Shown one piece after another: positions 7,660 through 14,337 of a DNA stretch of 14,337 bases. This DNA comes from a virus. The position numbers were made by a program, and so were the translations under genes. The DNA lies in the UHGV virus genome UHGV-1688991. The stretch is one strand, 5' to 3'. Positions within the stretch are counted from its first letter, which is position 1, and every line of letters begins with the position of its first letter. Under the pieces are notes generated by a model that was not told the origin of the DNA, made no database searches, and saw only the letters and a list, made by a program, of their open reading frames with translations.

Positions 7660-8310
7660 TTAGAAGTTCAGATTTTTCAGTGCATTCAGTGCAGAGCCCA
7701 CATCCTCAGCGTCGCGCAGGGACAGTGCGCCATAGCCCCCGGCCATGAATGCTTTGGCCTGGGTACGGGAGAGTCCGACATCACGCAGGACTCTTTCGAT
7801 TTTTTTCTGTTCAGGGATTTCCCCGCGGGCCAGCGCGTTCTTGACGTCGCTGATCCGCGCCTCGTCGTTAGACGGAAACGTCACCAGACTGACTTCCCAG
7901 AGGTCGATTTCTTTCAGCAAAAAGGCTTCTTTCGTCCGGTCGTATTCCCAGTCTTTCAGGACGTACCCAATAGAAAGGCCGGTTAACGAACCGGCCTTCA
8001 TGTGTGCATGTGCGCGTTTTGCCAGGGGATCATCATCAATGAGCAATCGCCCCCTGACGTAAAGCCCGACATCGTCTTCCTTCATTTCGGTGTAAACACC
8101 GATGGGCTCATCCATGCGGTGCTGCCAGAGCAGCGCAGGTAACGCTTTTCTGTCACTCCACGCCCGCAGGGAAGCAGCAAATGCCCCGGACATCACCACA
8201 TCATCGTGGCTGTCCTTTACACCAAAGACGGAGCCATACCCTTCAAACTCACCGGAGTCACTGACAGATTTCAGACTCAGCGGTACATCAAGACGTTGTT
8301 TCGTCTGCAT
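7660..8310 (-). CDS. Prohead maturation protease, HK97 family
   Basis: Motifs ...GYGSVFGVKDSHDDVV... and position between portal and capsid. Start revised to ATG 8310 (SD AAGGA 8 nt upstream); the track's ATG 8346 has no SD and overlaps portal by 59 nt. Confidence 0.85.
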   Translation of the reverse strand: MQTKQRLDVPLSLKSVSDSGEFEGYGSVFGVKDSHDDVVMSGAFAASLRAWSDRKALPALLWQHRMDEPIGVYTEMKEDDVGLYVRGRLLIDDDPLAKRAHAHMKAGSLTGLSIGYVLKDWEYDRTKEAFLLKEIDLWEVSLVTFPSNDEARISDVKNALARGEIPEQKKIERVLRDVGLSRTQAKAFMAGGYGALSLRDAEDVGSALNALKNLNF

Positions 8311-9529
8311 TGGCGTTATCCTTCTGCTTACCGGCTTTACTGCCATCGGAGGGTTTCGTGGTCATGTTCATCGGTGTGAGATAGACATCCCCACCGGGAC
8401 GCGGATTCATATCTTCCAGGTCGCGGCAGTCATTGGGAGAGTAAATTCCCCAGTTGATACCGGTGGCGTAGGCTTCAAAACGGGACTTCATATCCCCGCG
8501 CAGTAACGCCCCGGCGTTAAATTTGGCGTAATAAACGCCCTGCTTACTTTTTCGTACCAGTCCGGTGTTGATCCGCTGCTCAATGCGGGTCAGATACGGC
8601 ACCAGTGAATAGTTGATAAATCCCAGCCCCAGCTCTTCGATATTGTTGAAGGTGGCGCGATCGGTGTTCTGCACCATGTGCAATGGCACCCGGAACAGAC
8701 GACAGATTTCTTCAAGCTGAAACTTGCGGGTTTCCAGGAACTGGCTGTCCTCGGCGTTCAGCGCCATCGACTTCCAGTCCAGCCCCATCTCAAGGATCAT
8801 CGGGCGGTGAGCATTGCCAAGCCCGGTGTGACGCTCCTCAAAATCTTTCTTCAGGCGCTCATAAGCCTGATCTGACAGCGTCTGCTCTGTACGCAACACA
8901 CCCGACGTCACCGCGCCATTGCTGAACAGTCTGGCCCCGTGCTCTTCGGTCGCTGCCGCCAGCGATATTGCCTCGCGGGCATAGGCGATGGGATTCAGCC
9001 CCACCAGTCCGTCCATCGTCAGCGTGCGCACATGCCAGATATCCTCCTGGCTCAGTACATCCGTGGAGCCATCCGGGAATGTGACCTGATAGACCGGCTC
9101 CCAGCTACTGTTAAGCTTCGGTACCACACAGCCGGGATCGACGGGCAGCAGTTCAGCCACTTCGCCAAATGCTTTCACTTTGTAGGCGTAAAAGTTTCCC
9201 CGCAGGCACAGACAGGTGACCACCAGCTCCCAGAACTCCTGCGGCGTCATATAGCCATTGGGATGCGTGGAGATCAGCTTATGCAGACGTTCACCAGTGG
9301 CTCTCTGCTTCAGGCTGCCGTTCAGGTGATACAGGTTGCAGGGCAACATCCCGACCGACTCCGCCAGCACCCTGACACAGGAAAAAACCGCCGTCAGTCG
9401 CATGGCCCGCTGGCTGCTGATCTGCTTTCCGGTATAGGTGTCGTAGGACAACCCGATAGCATCCGCCAGCTCTGCTGGCGTGGTCACCGGTGCGTCACTT
9501 TTTCGTTGAAATAATCCCGAAAAGAACAC
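8288..9529 (-). CDS. Portal protein, HK97 family
   Basis: 413 aa; characteristic size and position after terL. GTG start at 9529 with SD GGAGGT 5 nt upstream. Confidence 0.9.
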   Translation of the reverse strand: MFFSGLFQRKSDAPVTTPAELADAIGLSYDTYTGKQISSQRAMRLTAVFSCVRVLAESVGMLPCNLYHLNGSLKQRATGERLHKLISTHPNGYMTPQEFWELVVTCLCLRGNFYAYKVKAFGEVAELLPVDPGCVVPKLNSSWEPVYQVTFPDGSTDVLSQEDIWHVRTLTMDGLVGLNPIAYAREAISLAAATEEHGARLFSNGAVTSGVLRTEQTLSDQAYERLKKDFEERHTGLGNAHRPMILEMGLDWKSMALNAEDSQFLETRKFQLEEICRLFRVPLHMVQNTDRATFNNIEELGLGFINYSLVPYLTRIEQRINTGLVRKSKQGVYYAKFNAGALLRGDMKSRFEAYATGINWGIYSPNDCRDLEDMNPRPGGDVYLTPMNMTTKPSDGSKAGKQKDNANADETTS

Positions 9530-9711
9530 TATTTACCTCCGCCGACAGACGACTGTGTACGGTCGAGATATCGCGCCACCAGCCACGACCAGAACAGGCA
9601 CAACGCCCCGGCAACAACAAACCCCGCCGGGGGATAAATCAGCCAGGCACCATACGCCAGCAAAAGCGCCCCCAGCACGCCCACCAGAGGCGCGAGAATC
9701 AGCATGATCAT
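9529..9711 (-). CDS. Small hydrophobic membrane protein (60 aa, two predicted TM helices)
   Basis: [67 protein letters not shown] lies 4 nt upstream of ATG 9711. Its TAG overlaps the portal GTG by 1 nt. Confidence 0.5.
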
Positions 9712-9722
9712 AATTACCTCAG

Positions 9723-11456
9723 TTAAAGCGAGCGGATCCCATAGGACTCAATGTGGTCAGACAGCGTGTCTTCTTTCTCGTACAGCATGGCTCTGCCAAC
9801 CGCCATAATCAGCGCAACTGCACCATCGATTTTGTTTTCCGCCTGCTCTTTGACGGGCTTCACCACATCATCGTTACCCGGAATGGTTTTGCCGACCACG
9901 TTGCCGATACACCAGGTCATGATGGGATTGCCATCATGATGAAAGCGCCCCGATTCAATTGCCGCTTCCAGCTCTTTCATCGGGTCGGACATGTTGGTGT
10001 AGTTCTGAATGATAGTGATGGGGTTCAGGTCTTCATCAGCAAGGTCATGTGACAACCCGGTCGCCCCGAAGGGGTCGATGGGTGACTCACTGACCGGGCT
10101 GATTTTGTTCGCCGCTTTGGCCTCCTCGAGGATGTAGCGATAATCCACCTCCGCACCATCGGTAACGGTCAGAACGCCCATTTCCACCCATTTCTGAAAG
10201 CGTTCGGCTGTCCGTCGATCTTCATTTTTCTCGACGCTGTACACCGTGTCATACGGTACCCAGAAACGCGGGGCCACACTGTAGTAATGCGTTTTACCGT
10301 CAATCTCGCGGGTATAAAGTCGCGCCATGCTGTTCATATCCAGCTTACGCGCCAGGTCAAAGGCCAGAATGCACGGCTGCCCCTCGAACTGCTCAAGGGT
10401 CAGTGATTTATCCTCGCAGCTCTGCCAGCTTACCAGGTTGAAATACGCCGAACGCGCCGACACCCAGATATTGAGGTGTTTTGTTTTAAAGACGTTTGCC
10501 AGACGGGCGTTATTTTTCGCACGCTGTTGCTGACTTAACAAAAACTCACGGTAAACCGACACCCCGATATTCGGGTTGGCTTTTTCCAGCACCTGTGGGT
10601 TGGTCCAGTCGTCACCTTCGTCAACGGTATAGATGATCCCGAACAGTTCATCGTTAGGCACCGAGCCGTTGAGCATCTCGATGACTTCCCGCCGCTTGTC
10701 GTAGCACGGCCCCTCAATGTTGTACCCGGCGGTGGTGATGGCCCACATCAGTGGCTGACGTCGCGCCCCCATCCCGGTAAGCATTGTGGTATAAAGCGCA
10801 TCGGTGGCATGCTCGTGATATTCATCAACCACGGCACAGTGGGGTGATGAACCATCACCGGGGTTGCCGATCAGCGGTTCAAACCGCGCGCCATCCTCCG
10901 GACGGTTCATGTTTGAGGCGTTAACCTCAATCCCGAACGCTTCCGTCAGCATGGGTGTGCGTTTACACATCAGTCGCGCCGGGCGAAAGACTTCCCACGC
11001 CTGTTTCTCTGTCGTGGCACCGGAATACACTTCCGCGCCAAACTCGTTATCACAGGCAAAACAATACAGGGCAACACCGGCAGAGATTGCCGATTTGCCG
11101 TTCTTACGGGGAATTTCGGTATACACCTCCCGGAAGCGGCGCAATCGGGTGCCTTTATTGACCCAGCCAAACGCACAGCAGATCACAAATAGCTGCCACG
11201 GCTCCAGCGTGATGGGCATCCGTTTGAATGCCCACTCACCCTTGGTATGCGGCAACAGCTGAATAAATTTGGCGGCCCGTTCAGCCAGGTCCTTGTCGAA
11301 GCGGTAACGAAACGACTTACTTTTTTCCGCCATCAGGTCATCAAGATGGCGCTGGCAGGCCTGAATCACAAACTGGCAGGCCACAATCTTTCCGCGCACG
11401 ACATCCCGGGCATACTGATTTGCAGCATTTACGTTGGGGTAAGATTTCCGGCTCAT
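9723..11456 (-). CDS. Terminase large subunit
   Basis: 577 aa with Walker A-like PRKNGKS, Walker B-like AVVDEYHE and C-terminal nuclease-type acidic motifs. ATGA overlap with terS. Confidence 0.92.
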
Positions 11457-11947
11457 GATTCGATAATTTTCAGAAACGGGTTAGTGGCTTTCTTCTGCCC
11501 CGCCAGGCCAATCAGACGCTGGCGGCTGCTGGGGTCGAGTCCGAGCATTGCCCCCGTGCTGCTCATCTCGGACTCCTGTTCTTTTTTGGCGGTCAGCTCC
11601 GGATTTTTGACCCTGCCGCCCATTGCACCGGTGATGGTGTTGCCCTGTATGGCAATATTTTTCACGGCACGTCGCCAGAACTCATAGGCCACGCACCACC
11701 GCTCAAGCACCGCGAGGTCAGTCACGCACAACAGGCCCTGACCGCAGAGTTCTTTGGTTGTCAGTTGCCACATGATCGTGGCGAGAGGGAGATTTTCTTC
11801 TGCGAACCACTCCGGTGGCTCAACACCTTTGATGGGCGTAAAAACAGGTTCATCTTTATTCAGGGCTCGCTTGCCGGGGTTTCCGGCCAGCGCCTTGCGC
11901 GCCGTTGGCTTGGGGCGACGCCCGGAACGCCCCACCGTTCCAGCCAT
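11453..11947 (-). CDS. Terminase small subunit (P27-family-like)
   Basis: About 164 aa, basic N-terminus ([13 protein letters not shown]), immediately upstream of terL. Start revised to ATG 11947 with SD AGGAG 8 nt upstream; the track's GTG 11956 would fall on this SD. Confidence 0.8.
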
Positions 11948-12072
11948 ATGCGGCACTCCTGGTTAAATTTCATTTTTCGCGGGTATAAAAAAACGATGGG
12001 GCGGGCAGTCCGGAAGACGTCAGGCCGCAGGGATTTGACCCGCCCCTCCCCTCAGGCAGTTGAGAATTATTA
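11948..12072. other. Candidate cos / packaging-initiation region
   Basis: The only non-coding gap between HNH and terS. It has a GC-rich core with inverted GGGGCGGG (11999-12006) and CCCGCCCC (12040-12047) arms, next to an AT-rich tract (11975-11995). The position matches HK97-type cos sites. Confidence 0.35.
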
Positions 12073-12423
12073 TCACTTCAACCGTTCACGGGCCGTCTTC
12101 GCCTTATGACACGGCCAGCACAGGCTCTGCAGATTACTGTCGGCATCAGAGCCGCCATGCGCTTTAGGGATGATGTGATCAACGGTTTTCGCTTCACGCA
12201 CCACACCGGCACGCAGACATAACTGACACAGGCCTTTGTCACGCTTCAGCACACGCGCGCGGATAACGTCCCACTTCGAACCATAACCGCGCTGGTGACG
12301 GGACTGACCTGGCTTGTATTGCCTCCAGCCTTCGCTTTTGTGGCTTTCACAATAGCCTGACGGATCTGTGGTGGTATGGCGGCAACCGCGAACACGGCAG
12401 GCTTTTGGGATTCGTGGCGGCAT
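12073..12423 (-). CDS. HNH endonuclease, terminase-associated
   Basis: 116 aa; N-terminal Cys cluster (CRVRGCRH...C) and C-terminal DHIIPKAHGG...NLQSLCWPCH HNH motif. Positioned immediately upstream of terS. Confidence 0.85.
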   Translation of the reverse strand: MPPRIPKACRVRGCRHTTTDPSGYCESHKSEGWRQYKPGQSRHQRGYGSKWDVIRARVLKRDKGLCQLCLRAGVVREAKTVDHIIPKAHGGSDADSNLQSLCWPCHKAKTARERLK

Positions 12424-12835
12424 ATGTACTAATCTCCGATTTATCCAAATTTCACTGCCATAATGCCGACATTCTCTGCCATTATTGGCTCCGTTTATCC
12501 GTTAAAAGGGATATCAGTTAAGTTATCCCGTGTAGGGTATAAGCCATTGTCGAGACCACTCATTGAATGGTCTCTGCAATAACCGATGTCTTTCCATCAG
12601 TCCGCCACCACAAAGAATCTTTTTTGCCATAAGGCAGGAGGTTCATCTTTCAGTGGCTGCCAGTGTTATTTCCCCACTTACTGGCTTGGGTTGCTTCGTG
12701 GTACTGCCGTTAACTGGTGGCGCACAGATTTAGTTAAATCTGTTCTCGCATGATCCAGCTTTTACATACCCGGATTGTGGGGATGCAAATCACGGTTTCA
12801 TTATCAAGCCCACCAGTAGATGGGCTTTGTAATGG

Positions 12836-13794: not shown

Positions 13795-14337
13795 TTATTT
13801 CAGGCATTGCGTCCTGATGTATTCCTGCAGGTAGTTAACCTGCGCGGTTATCTTGTCGATTCCACTTCGGAGACGGTAATAATTGAGTTCAGCATCTGCT
13901 GTAAGTCCTGGGCTTTCTCCATCGCCCATGCCGCTGGCTCCGGTCGTTGACTTTGCACAGGTGGCGGCGACTTGCAGGCGCTTACGCCCAGCAGAAACAT
14001 CAGCACGGAGACTTTCGATAGTCGCGTTAGCATCAGCAAGCTCCTTTGTGTATCTTGCGTCGAGTTCTGCTACATCACGTTGACGCTTCCGCATGTCAGC
14101 GATGGTGGCGTTCGCCTTCTCCAGTTCACTGGCCTTGTTATCGCGCTGCTCTTTGTAGGCGATTGCGTTATCACGGTAATGATTAACAGCCAATGACAGG
14201 CAGAGGGCATTCTTCACACCATCCTCATCCACATGAGTCGTAATGTAATCGGCTACCTGCTTCAATTCATCACCAGCATTGCCCATTGCTACACCTACAC
14301 CTGCCTTCTTGATGATAGAGATGTCGTTGCCGCCATC
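13795..14337 (-). CDS. Rz: Chimeric ORF, 5' end outside window: Cof-type HAD hydrolase C-terminal segment fused in frame to an Rz-like i-spanin lacking its TM anchor
   Basis: From about 14200 downward the protein aligns with lambda Rz along its length ([10 protein letters not shown]...YTKELADA...GRKRL...). Upstream, the same frame reads [45 protein letters not shown], the C-terminal motif of Cof/YidA-type HAD phosphatases. The frame is open to the window edge. Confidence 0.6.
13848..14033 (-). CDS. Rz1: Rz1-like o-spanin lipoprotein, embedded in the Rz frame
   Basis: In the +1 frame inside Rz. Signal peptide with lipobox (LLGVSAC) followed by a Pro-rich region ([13 protein letters not shown]). 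ATG 14033 has SD AAGGAG 7 nt upstream. Confidence 0.7.

Follow-up and report, generated by a model that had tools for sequence, protein, structure and literature searches.

The gene ymfR of Escherichia coli K-12 (b1150) lies in the decayed element e14, and its counterparts in the phages ST64B (Sb3) and phiP27 (L37) likewise stand in the order terL-ymfR-portal, between the genes of the large terminase subunit (terL) and the portal protein. All of them are the same gene, represented by the phage protein family PHROG 502 ('membrane protein'), and the cultured phages phi467, SfI, SfII and SfIV carry it at the same position. We have analyzed the virus genome UHGV-1688991, a stretch of 14,337 nucleotides (nt), referred to as the window, in which an open reading frame (ORF) of 60 amino acids (aa) is located on the minus strand between terL and portal. 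This ORF is ymfR, a genuine protein-coding gene in the late head and packaging operon of a prophage of the P27/SfV/ST64B type, and it shows no material difference from the described copies. Hence, ymfR is already known both as an annotated gene and as a phage protein family; the window contains the same gene in a fuller head module, and the identity of its product with K-12 YmfR makes it ordinary as a finding. The present analysis adds that membrane hairpins of 50-75 aa are tied to the 5' end of portal in phages that infect Gram-negative as well as Gram-positive bacteria and are exchanged together with this gene.

In the literature examined, ymfR was mentioned solely in lists of e14 deletions, in an expression table, and as a neutral integration site. 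Searches on ymfR, on small membrane proteins between terminase and portal, and on phrog_502 found no functional work, and no description was found of the breadth of the family, its near-obligatory joining to the portal start codon, or its co-transfer with portal. For this annotated y-gene of K-12, which about 30% of the complete E. coli genomes carry, a functional study was not found. In K-12, ymfR was upregulated together with other e14 genes (log2 4.5) under SOS-inducing treatment with LP-600 (PMC10012262), and deletion of the e14 copy was reported to be without phenotype (PMC9145139).

An earlier note on this DNA had described a 60-aa ORF with a good Shine-Dalgarno sequence, a pair of hydrophobic helices and a short C-terminus of polar character, placed between terL and portal and coupled to the portal start by a TAG/GTG overlap. 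The ORF itself, which lies on the minus strand, was confirmed by sequence, hydropathy, and an AlphaFold2 model; the position was confirmed by Pfam matches of both flanking genes, and the coupling by the sequence TAGTG together with a 1-nt overlap annotated in RefSeq. The locus comprises the following features:

9529..9711, minus strand: ymfR coding sequence, 60 codons plus TAG, predicted small membrane hairpin protein of PHROG 502 (sequence, PHROG match)
9717..9720, minus strand: Shine-Dalgarno sequence GAGG of ymfR, 5 nt before the ATG (read directly)
9637..9708, minus strand: predicted transmembrane (TM) helix 1, residues 2-25 (hydropathy, AlphaFold2, alignment)
9625..9636, minus strand: predicted tight turn Y26-P-P-A29 (hydropathy, family alignment)
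9571..9624, minus strand: predicted TM helix 2, residues 30-47, ending in R47 (hydropathy, AlphaFold2, alignment)
9532..9570, minus strand: polar variable C-terminal tail, residues 48-60 (sequence, alignment)
9536..9540, minus strand: portal Shine-Dalgarno sequence GGAGG inside ymfR codons G57-G59 (read directly)
9527..9531, minus strand: TAGTG, ymfR stop and portal GTG overlapping by 1 base, translational coupling (sequence, RefSeq)
8288..9529, minus strand: portal gene, Phage_portal PF04860, E 4e-108, coupled to ymfR (Pfam)
9723..11456, minus strand: terL, upstream neighbour, TerL_ATPase and TerL_nuclease (Pfam)

The ORF reads from 9711 to 9529, ATG to TAG. The terL stop codon TAA (9725-9723) is followed by CT, GAGG (9720-9717), TAATT, and the ymfR ATG (9711), which leaves a gap of 11 nt between terL stop and ymfR start. 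At its 3' end ymfR reads GGC GGA GGT AAA TAG TG, and the G of its TAG (9531-9529) is the first base of the portal GTG (9529-9527). The identical 1-nt overlap of ymfR and portal is annotated in RefSeq for a prophage which is 99.9% identical over window positions 8200-11500. Two antisense ORFs on the plus strand (9490-9726 and 9555-9707) were rejected as being without support.

Comparison of the ymfR product with PHROG 502 gave an E-value of 2.5e-28, with residues 1-55 covering positions 3-57 of the 58 in the profile. Its sequence is 100% identical to the RefSeq proteins named YmfR and to E. coli K-12 e14 YmfR; in e14-like loci, ymfR is intact between truncated neighbours, terL being reduced to residues 200-577 and portal to residues 1-139. 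A megablast search with the terL-ymfR-portal stretch matched 1,635 of 5,426 complete E. coli genomes (~30%), where RefSeq labels the gene 'ymfR: protein YmfR'. YmfR had no match in Pfam (E<=0.01), NCBIfam, or PADLOC, and 42 distant family members had no match in Pfam. A sequence profile search against the PDB and a Foldseek comparison of the AlphaFold2 model with the PDB returned nothing meaningful (best E-values about 1 and 7); a 60-aa hairpin is too simple for a fold search to be informative.

Annotation of the gene in phage records is uneven. Family members are present and unannotated in SfIV (KC814930 / NC_022749, positions 2382-2483), in Yersinia phage PY54 (2295-2492), and in Burkholderia phage vB_PR1 (615-800). 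Phages vB_EcoM-720R4, -689R6, and -606R7 as well as Salmonella phage As1 label ymfR 'head-tail joining protein W', which looks like a mis-annotation by position.

YmfR is predicted from hydropathy and the AlphaFold2 model to form a 60-aa helical hairpin, in which two TM helices are joined by a tight Y-P-P-A-G turn. Its grand average of hydropathy (GRAVY) is 1.22, and the Kyte-Doolittle means over 15 residues rise to 2.7 for the first helix and to 2.2 for the second, dropping at the intervening YPPAG. AlphaFold2, supplied with 25 homologues, modelled helices at residues 2-25 and 27-56 with a mean predicted local distance difference test score (pLDDT) of 76. Residue conservation was derived from a profile alignment of 145 diverse members and revealed a family signature consisting of G35 (100%), G14 and G21 (98% each), G30 and R/K47 (90% each), P28 (83%), W23 (82%), G11 (79%), and A29 (75%). 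The window protein carries every signature residue, namely G14, G21, W23, the x-P-A-G turn, G35, and R/K after TM helix 2. Conservation is best in the turn and the flanking helix ends, [SA]-[YF]-G-A-W-L-[IV]-Y-x-P-A-G-[FY]-I-V. Helix 2 additionally shows a ladder of mostly small residues at family positions 30/34/38/42/46, which in YmfR are G30/A34-G35/C38/S42/A46.

The N- and C-terminal ends of the family are variable and positively charged, and the turn is nearly uncharged: among 135 members, the ratio of K/R to D/E was 210:49 at the N-terminal end, 14:12 in the loop, and 233:166 in the C-terminal tail. By the positive-inside rule this charge distribution predicts that both ends of YmfR are cytoplasmic (N-in/C-in) and that the turn is outside the cytoplasm. 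Family tails are short and variable; that of YmfR, taken as 14 residues, contains three basic residues and one acidic residue.

Four family members of 102-122 aa (P0152, P0165, P0171, and P0215) contain the whole hairpin duplicated in tandem, with four predicted TM helices. Furthermore, two weak terminator-like hairpins with T-rich runs were noticed within ymfR on the minus strand at 9666-9693 and 9621-9635. The second of them (CCCCCGGCGGGG + TTTGTTGTT) encodes the conserved Y-P-P-A-G-F, and the GenBank record of SfII has a 'terminator' annotated at the position equivalent to a ymfR-internal hairpin.

The distribution of the family was then determined. A word-indexed search gave 167 clusters at 90% identity, and the organisms named among the 120 clusters listed were all Enterobacterales. 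A profile search of 1.84 billion cluster representatives gave 380 clusters (50% identity) at E<=1e-3; among the 150 profile matches listed, lengths ranged from 26 to 122 aa and were mostly 45-95 aa. The order terL-ymfR-portal was present in 90 of 90 Enterobacterales loci retrieved. A distant set was assembled from 80 IMG/VR loci and one contig of an Alcaligenaceae metagenome-assembled genome (MAG); 78 of these loci had room downstream. Portal starts right after the small gene in 77 of the 78 and overlaps its stop codon in 74 (64 of the TGATG type, -1; 10 of the ATGA type, -4). On the upstream side, terL is the immediate neighbour in 63 loci and is separated by 350-2066 nt in 15, which carry extra DNA on the terL side of the small gene; in four of these 15, the intervening ORFs had no Pfam match. 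A Shine-Dalgarno core was present within the 3'-terminal 16 nt of this small ORF in 29 of 81 distant loci as compared to 2 of 81 in a control window. On the Alcaligenaceae contig, terL is followed by a 54-aa family member and a portal 35% identical to that of the window, with ATGA overlaps on both sides.

The same arrangement was found in named phages: Azospirillum Cd (gp30), Yersinia PY54, Lactobacillus MLC-A, Bacillus phi105 (ORF24), Ralstonia Dina (gp25), Vibrio K270, and Burkholderia vB_PR1. PY54, whose unannotated member at 2295-2492 comprises 65 aa, is a siphovirus, and both siphovirus and myovirus tail types occur among the carriers. The members from these named phages score against PHROG 502, 7105, and 1142. 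The latter two families (Ralstonia Dina and Vibrio K270; Bacillus phi105 ORF24) cross-match PHROG 502 with E-values of 2e-4 to 4e-7 and, like YmfR, consist of two-TM hairpins of 54-75 aa abutting portal; they differ by a degenerate turn (FGPGPA in Dina, WSTNIG in phi105) and by basic N-terminal extensions. The breadth of the family thus covers Proteobacteria and Firmicutes.

Additionally, 12 phages were sampled by portal likeness alone (27-39% identity to the window portal). Five of them carry a two-TM ORF of 54-75 aa abutting portal, always at the same site, and seven do not. Four of the five carriers match PHROG 502; the ORF of Streptomyces phage Chymera has the same architecture without a profile match, i.e. 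a similarly built ORF of an actinophage is undetected by the family models. In phages without the small gene, terL usually abuts portal, and in HK97 itself both genes overlap by one base with nothing between them. The earlier note had considered portal directly after terL to be canonical for HK97-type modules and ymfR to be an insertion. The former holds for HK97, and the latter does not: the ORF is intact and syntenic in related head modules, where its absence or disruption had been named as evidence against it, and it is a long-standing resident of the module in phages of Proteobacteria and Firmicutes, with a similar ORF in an actinophage. Its presence in five of the 12 sampled modules, its lack in HK97, and its fixed position across phyla indicate that ymfR is an old, recurrent, and dispensable companion of this portal family, neither universal nor recently inserted.

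Several database entries deserve separate mention. The MAG 'Bacillota bacterium' (L083), Edwardsiella hoshinae (L085), and the 1,764-nt 'Enterococcus phage Efm 3-10' (H11) contain terL-ymfR-portal with 98-100% protein identity to the E. coli prophage; the mismatch in taxon is most simply explained by contamination, mis-binning, or a transfer that took place very recently. In a second copy of the locus in Shigella flexneri (CP182557), ymfR lacks one base and can be aligned solely from residue 27 onwards, next to terL and portal that are still 99% identical to those of the window; this copy appears to be frameshifted. Frameshifted variants also occur among the database proteins (P0128, P0133, P0140, P0141, and P0153). 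A locus from Defluviitaleaceae was discarded, its match being a chance YGAWLIY within an ABC transporter. Long hairpin 'fusions' (L166, L172, L097, and others) are artefacts of choosing the first start codon in DNA of high G+C content, the true starts being internal, and no fusion to terL or portal was seen among the apparent long members.

Selection was analyzed by comparison of the window with prophages of Mangrovibacter, Scandinavium, and Citrobacter. The ratio of nonsynonymous to synonymous substitution rates (dN/dS) was 0.23-0.37 for ymfR at a dS of ~0.9-1.5, and 0.02-0.09 for terL and portal. Purifying selection therefore acts on ymfR, which is, however, 4-6 times less constrained than its two neighbours; much of this difference is probably due to the variable tail. 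The match to PHROG 502, the 380 clusters, and a dN/dS below 1 show that ymfR is more than a chance ORF.

When ST64B, phi467, and a further prophage (L062) were compared with the window, dS was 1.6-2.8 for terL, 0.02-0.12 for ymfR, and 0.09-0.14 for portal; for phiP27 it was 2.0 for terL, 0.11 for ymfR, and 0.83 for a partly diverged portal. A diverged terL beside a near-identical ymfR and portal places the exchange junction at or before the terL/ymfR boundary. At this boundary (9711-9725), the loci L176, L177, L178, and L062 have a strongly different terL (77-95% aa identity or lower) next to near-identical ymfR and portal start. Pairwise identities were determined among 53 distant loci. In 86 pairs with small proteins at least 80% identical, portal was never below 70% identity and terL was in nine; in nine pairs with portal at least 90% and terL less than 70% identical, the median identity of the small proteins was 88%. 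Both the dS mosaicism and the pairwise identities indicate that the small gene travels with portal in mosaic exchange.

We regard it as very probable that YmfR is a real, conserved late membrane protein coupled to portal. Regarding its function, a mechanism can be proposed as follows. YmfR would be produced solely in the lytic cycle from the late transcript, and coupling of its translation to that of portal would link the output of both. The protein would insert into the cytoplasmic membrane with both ends inside; the small-residue faces (G11/G14/G21 in helix 1; G30/G35/C38/S42/A46 in helix 2) would pack the hairpin and probably drive self-association. There, YmfR may serve as an accessory, dispensable membrane partner of portal, e.g. 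by holding or nucleating the portal ring or the prohead initiator. The model for such a role is phage T4, in which gene 40 is not adjacent to gene 20. Assembly of the T4 portal gp20 takes place on the inner membrane and is aided by gp40 and host YidC (PMC9958956). The likeness is one of role only, a portal on the membrane with a small phage membrane factor, which is proven for T4 and would apply to YmfR by analogy; T4 differs in portal family and head type. As a whole, the statement that YmfR is a late, portal-coupled inner-membrane hairpin acting at portal or prohead initiation is tentative and falls somewhat short of being probable. The specific role of YmfR with the portal at the membrane is rather doubtful; it is rated lower because conservation is confined to residues within or bordering the membrane, both ends predicted to be cytoplasmic are short as well as variable, and many relatives are devoid of the gene.

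Several observations weigh against such a role. Conserved parts occur exclusively within or next to the membrane, and the short, variable cytoplasmic ends, being partly dictated by the ribosome-binding site of portal, offer little surface to a soluble portal. The gene is missing from seven of the 12 sampled modules and from HK97 and thus cannot be essential to an assembly of this kind, and its evolution is 4-6 times faster than that of its neighbours terL and portal. We know of no demonstration that HK97-type heads assemble on a membrane, and the literature search found no experiment linking the family to portal or prohead assembly. The tight adjacency of both genes could also result from expression control only.

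A more specific form of the proposal is that the hairpins of YmfR and PHROG 502 constitute a membrane oligomer, formed via glycine-zipper faces and possibly matched to the 12-fold portal, which would nucleate or hold the portal ring. This is improbable; if true, the assembly of HK97-type heads, for which the cytoplasm is at present considered to be the site, would include a membrane step that spans phyla and has so far gone unrecognised. More generally, if YmfR does work with portal, this would hint at a step of HK97-type head assembly that is associated with the membrane. A homologue of ymfR would be an inexpensive knockout target.

The alternative that survives best is a holin-like protein or viroporin, and it is unlikely. 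Here, the hairpin would oligomerise via its glycine-zipper faces into a membrane lesion or modulate the true holin, thereby tuning lysis timing or membrane potential. Class II holins and pinholins such as S68 of phage 21 comprise ~60-70 aa with two TM helices, N-in/C-in topology, and small-residue faces, and pinholin S21 uses a small-xxx-small helix face. YmfR is alike in its size, two TM helices, predicted topology, small-residue faces with a small-xxx-small ladder along TM helix 2, basic residue after this helix, and late expression, and ymfR shares the late transcript with the lysis cassette. YmfR differs from pinholins in that both helices are strongly hydrophobic and the C-terminal tail is short and weakly charged. 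Neither YmfR nor the 42 distant members matched a holin family of Pfam or PHROG, the only PHROG matches being 502 and 7105. The gene was never seen beside an endolysin: it is outside the lysis cassette, between terL and portal in the window and at portal in 77 of 78 distant loci; for a lysis factor or an exclusion factor, such a fixed position would be unusual. Furthermore, ymfR of K-12 e14 is reported to be deletable without phenotype (PMC9145139).

The lysis side of the window is truncated, which could seem to favour a holin. In a closely related prophage located at dusA, HNH is directly preceded by a normal holin cassette, which consists of a holin of the lambda family, a GH104 endolysin, Rz (DUF2570), and Rz1. 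The 163-aa 'Rz' ORF of the window is chimeric: its first 28 residues correspond to the C-terminal end of a HAD hydrolase of the Cof type (Hydrolase_3, E 1.4e-4), and Rz is matched by residues 40-161 (PF03245, E 2e-39). Matches to E. coli end at window position 14204, and bases 14190-14337 matched none of the 5,426 complete E. coli genomes. It looks as if either the contig is a chimera or the prophage was cut within Rz and continues into foreign DNA, in which case this side is devoid of the holin, the endolysin, and the early genes. The statement in the earlier note that the element appears to lack its lysis-cassette holin agrees with the window, in which Rz is cut and passes into foreign DNA at ~14204; the suggestion that the small protein resembles a holin found no support from family matches, and the truncated side is no evidence for YmfR replacing a holin. 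Hence, YmfR is probably not the holin of this phage.

A second suggestion of the earlier note, that of a moron or superinfection-exclusion gene, is very unlikely. Such a membrane protein would act for the lysogen or infected cell by keeping out the DNA of other phages. In PHROGs, family 502 is placed under 'moron, auxiliary metabolic gene and host takeover', YmfR is a small inner-membrane protein, its gene is dispensable in many related modules, and the decayed e14 has retained an intact copy although terL and portal on either side are truncated. HK97 gp15 and T4 Imm are likewise small phage inner-membrane proteins, and genes of this type are sporadic and independently expressed. In contrast, ymfR is embedded in the late operon, with a gap of 11 nt to terL and its 3' side coupled to portal, at a position that is fixed in 90 of 90 Enterobacterales loci and across phyla. 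No promoter-like site was found between terL and ymfR by a consensus scan, which is weak evidence. The sole promoter-like site on the same strand in 8000-12800 lies ~500 nt upstream of ymfR inside terL, and the count of such sites equals that in shuffled sequences. YmfR had no match to a defence family in PADLOC, and the gene travels with head modules carrying different tail types. In K-12 it was induced along with other e14 genes and did not stand out (PMC10012262). YmfR is very probably not a lysogenic-conversion moron.

The ORF might also act as an expression device, delivering ribosomes to the portal start by termination-reinitiation and setting a low portal dose, with a near-functionless peptide; we consider this equally improbable. 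The stop/start overlap in 74 of 78 loci, the portal Shine-Dalgarno sequence within the last ymfR codons, which shapes the C-terminal sequence, and the faster evolution of YmfR than of the neighbouring genes are in line with it, and HK97 obtains the same 1-nt coupling straight from terL. However, such a device would not retain a two-TM hairpin with glycines conserved to 98-100% and Trp and Pro to 82-83% across Proteobacteria and Firmicutes, nor a dN/dS of ~0.3 at saturating dS. Where the gene is missing, terL usually abuts portal; hence, no spacer ORF is needed. The remaining probability falls to some other late membrane function. A chance ORF or an analogue of lambda gpW can be dismissed: some phage records use the W label, and SfIV, PY54, and vB_PR1 leave the ORF unannotated, but conservation, selection, and family statistics refute chance, and a GRAVY of 1.22 and two TM helices are incompatible with a soluble connector, with no match to Pfam including gpW.

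The late operon, which in the related dusA prophage is preceded by a Q antiterminator, has the order HNH - terS(P27) - terL - ymfR - portal - protease - capsid. Apart from terL, ymfR, and portal, the following genes of the window were assigned by domain matches:

14286-13795, minus strand: Rz fragment ORF
13656-13090, minus strand: protein with KilA-N and ORF11CD3 domains
12423-12073, minus strand: HNH endonuclease
11956-11453, minus strand: P27-family small terminase
8346-7660, minus strand: S78 prohead protease
7645-6440, minus strand: HK97-type capsid protein

Further on in the window, connector genes and genes of tail sheath, tail tube, and tape measure protein follow on the minus strand. 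The KilA-N protein is located between the Rz fragment and HNH; in the close relative (L001), Rz1 and HNH directly adjoin at this place.

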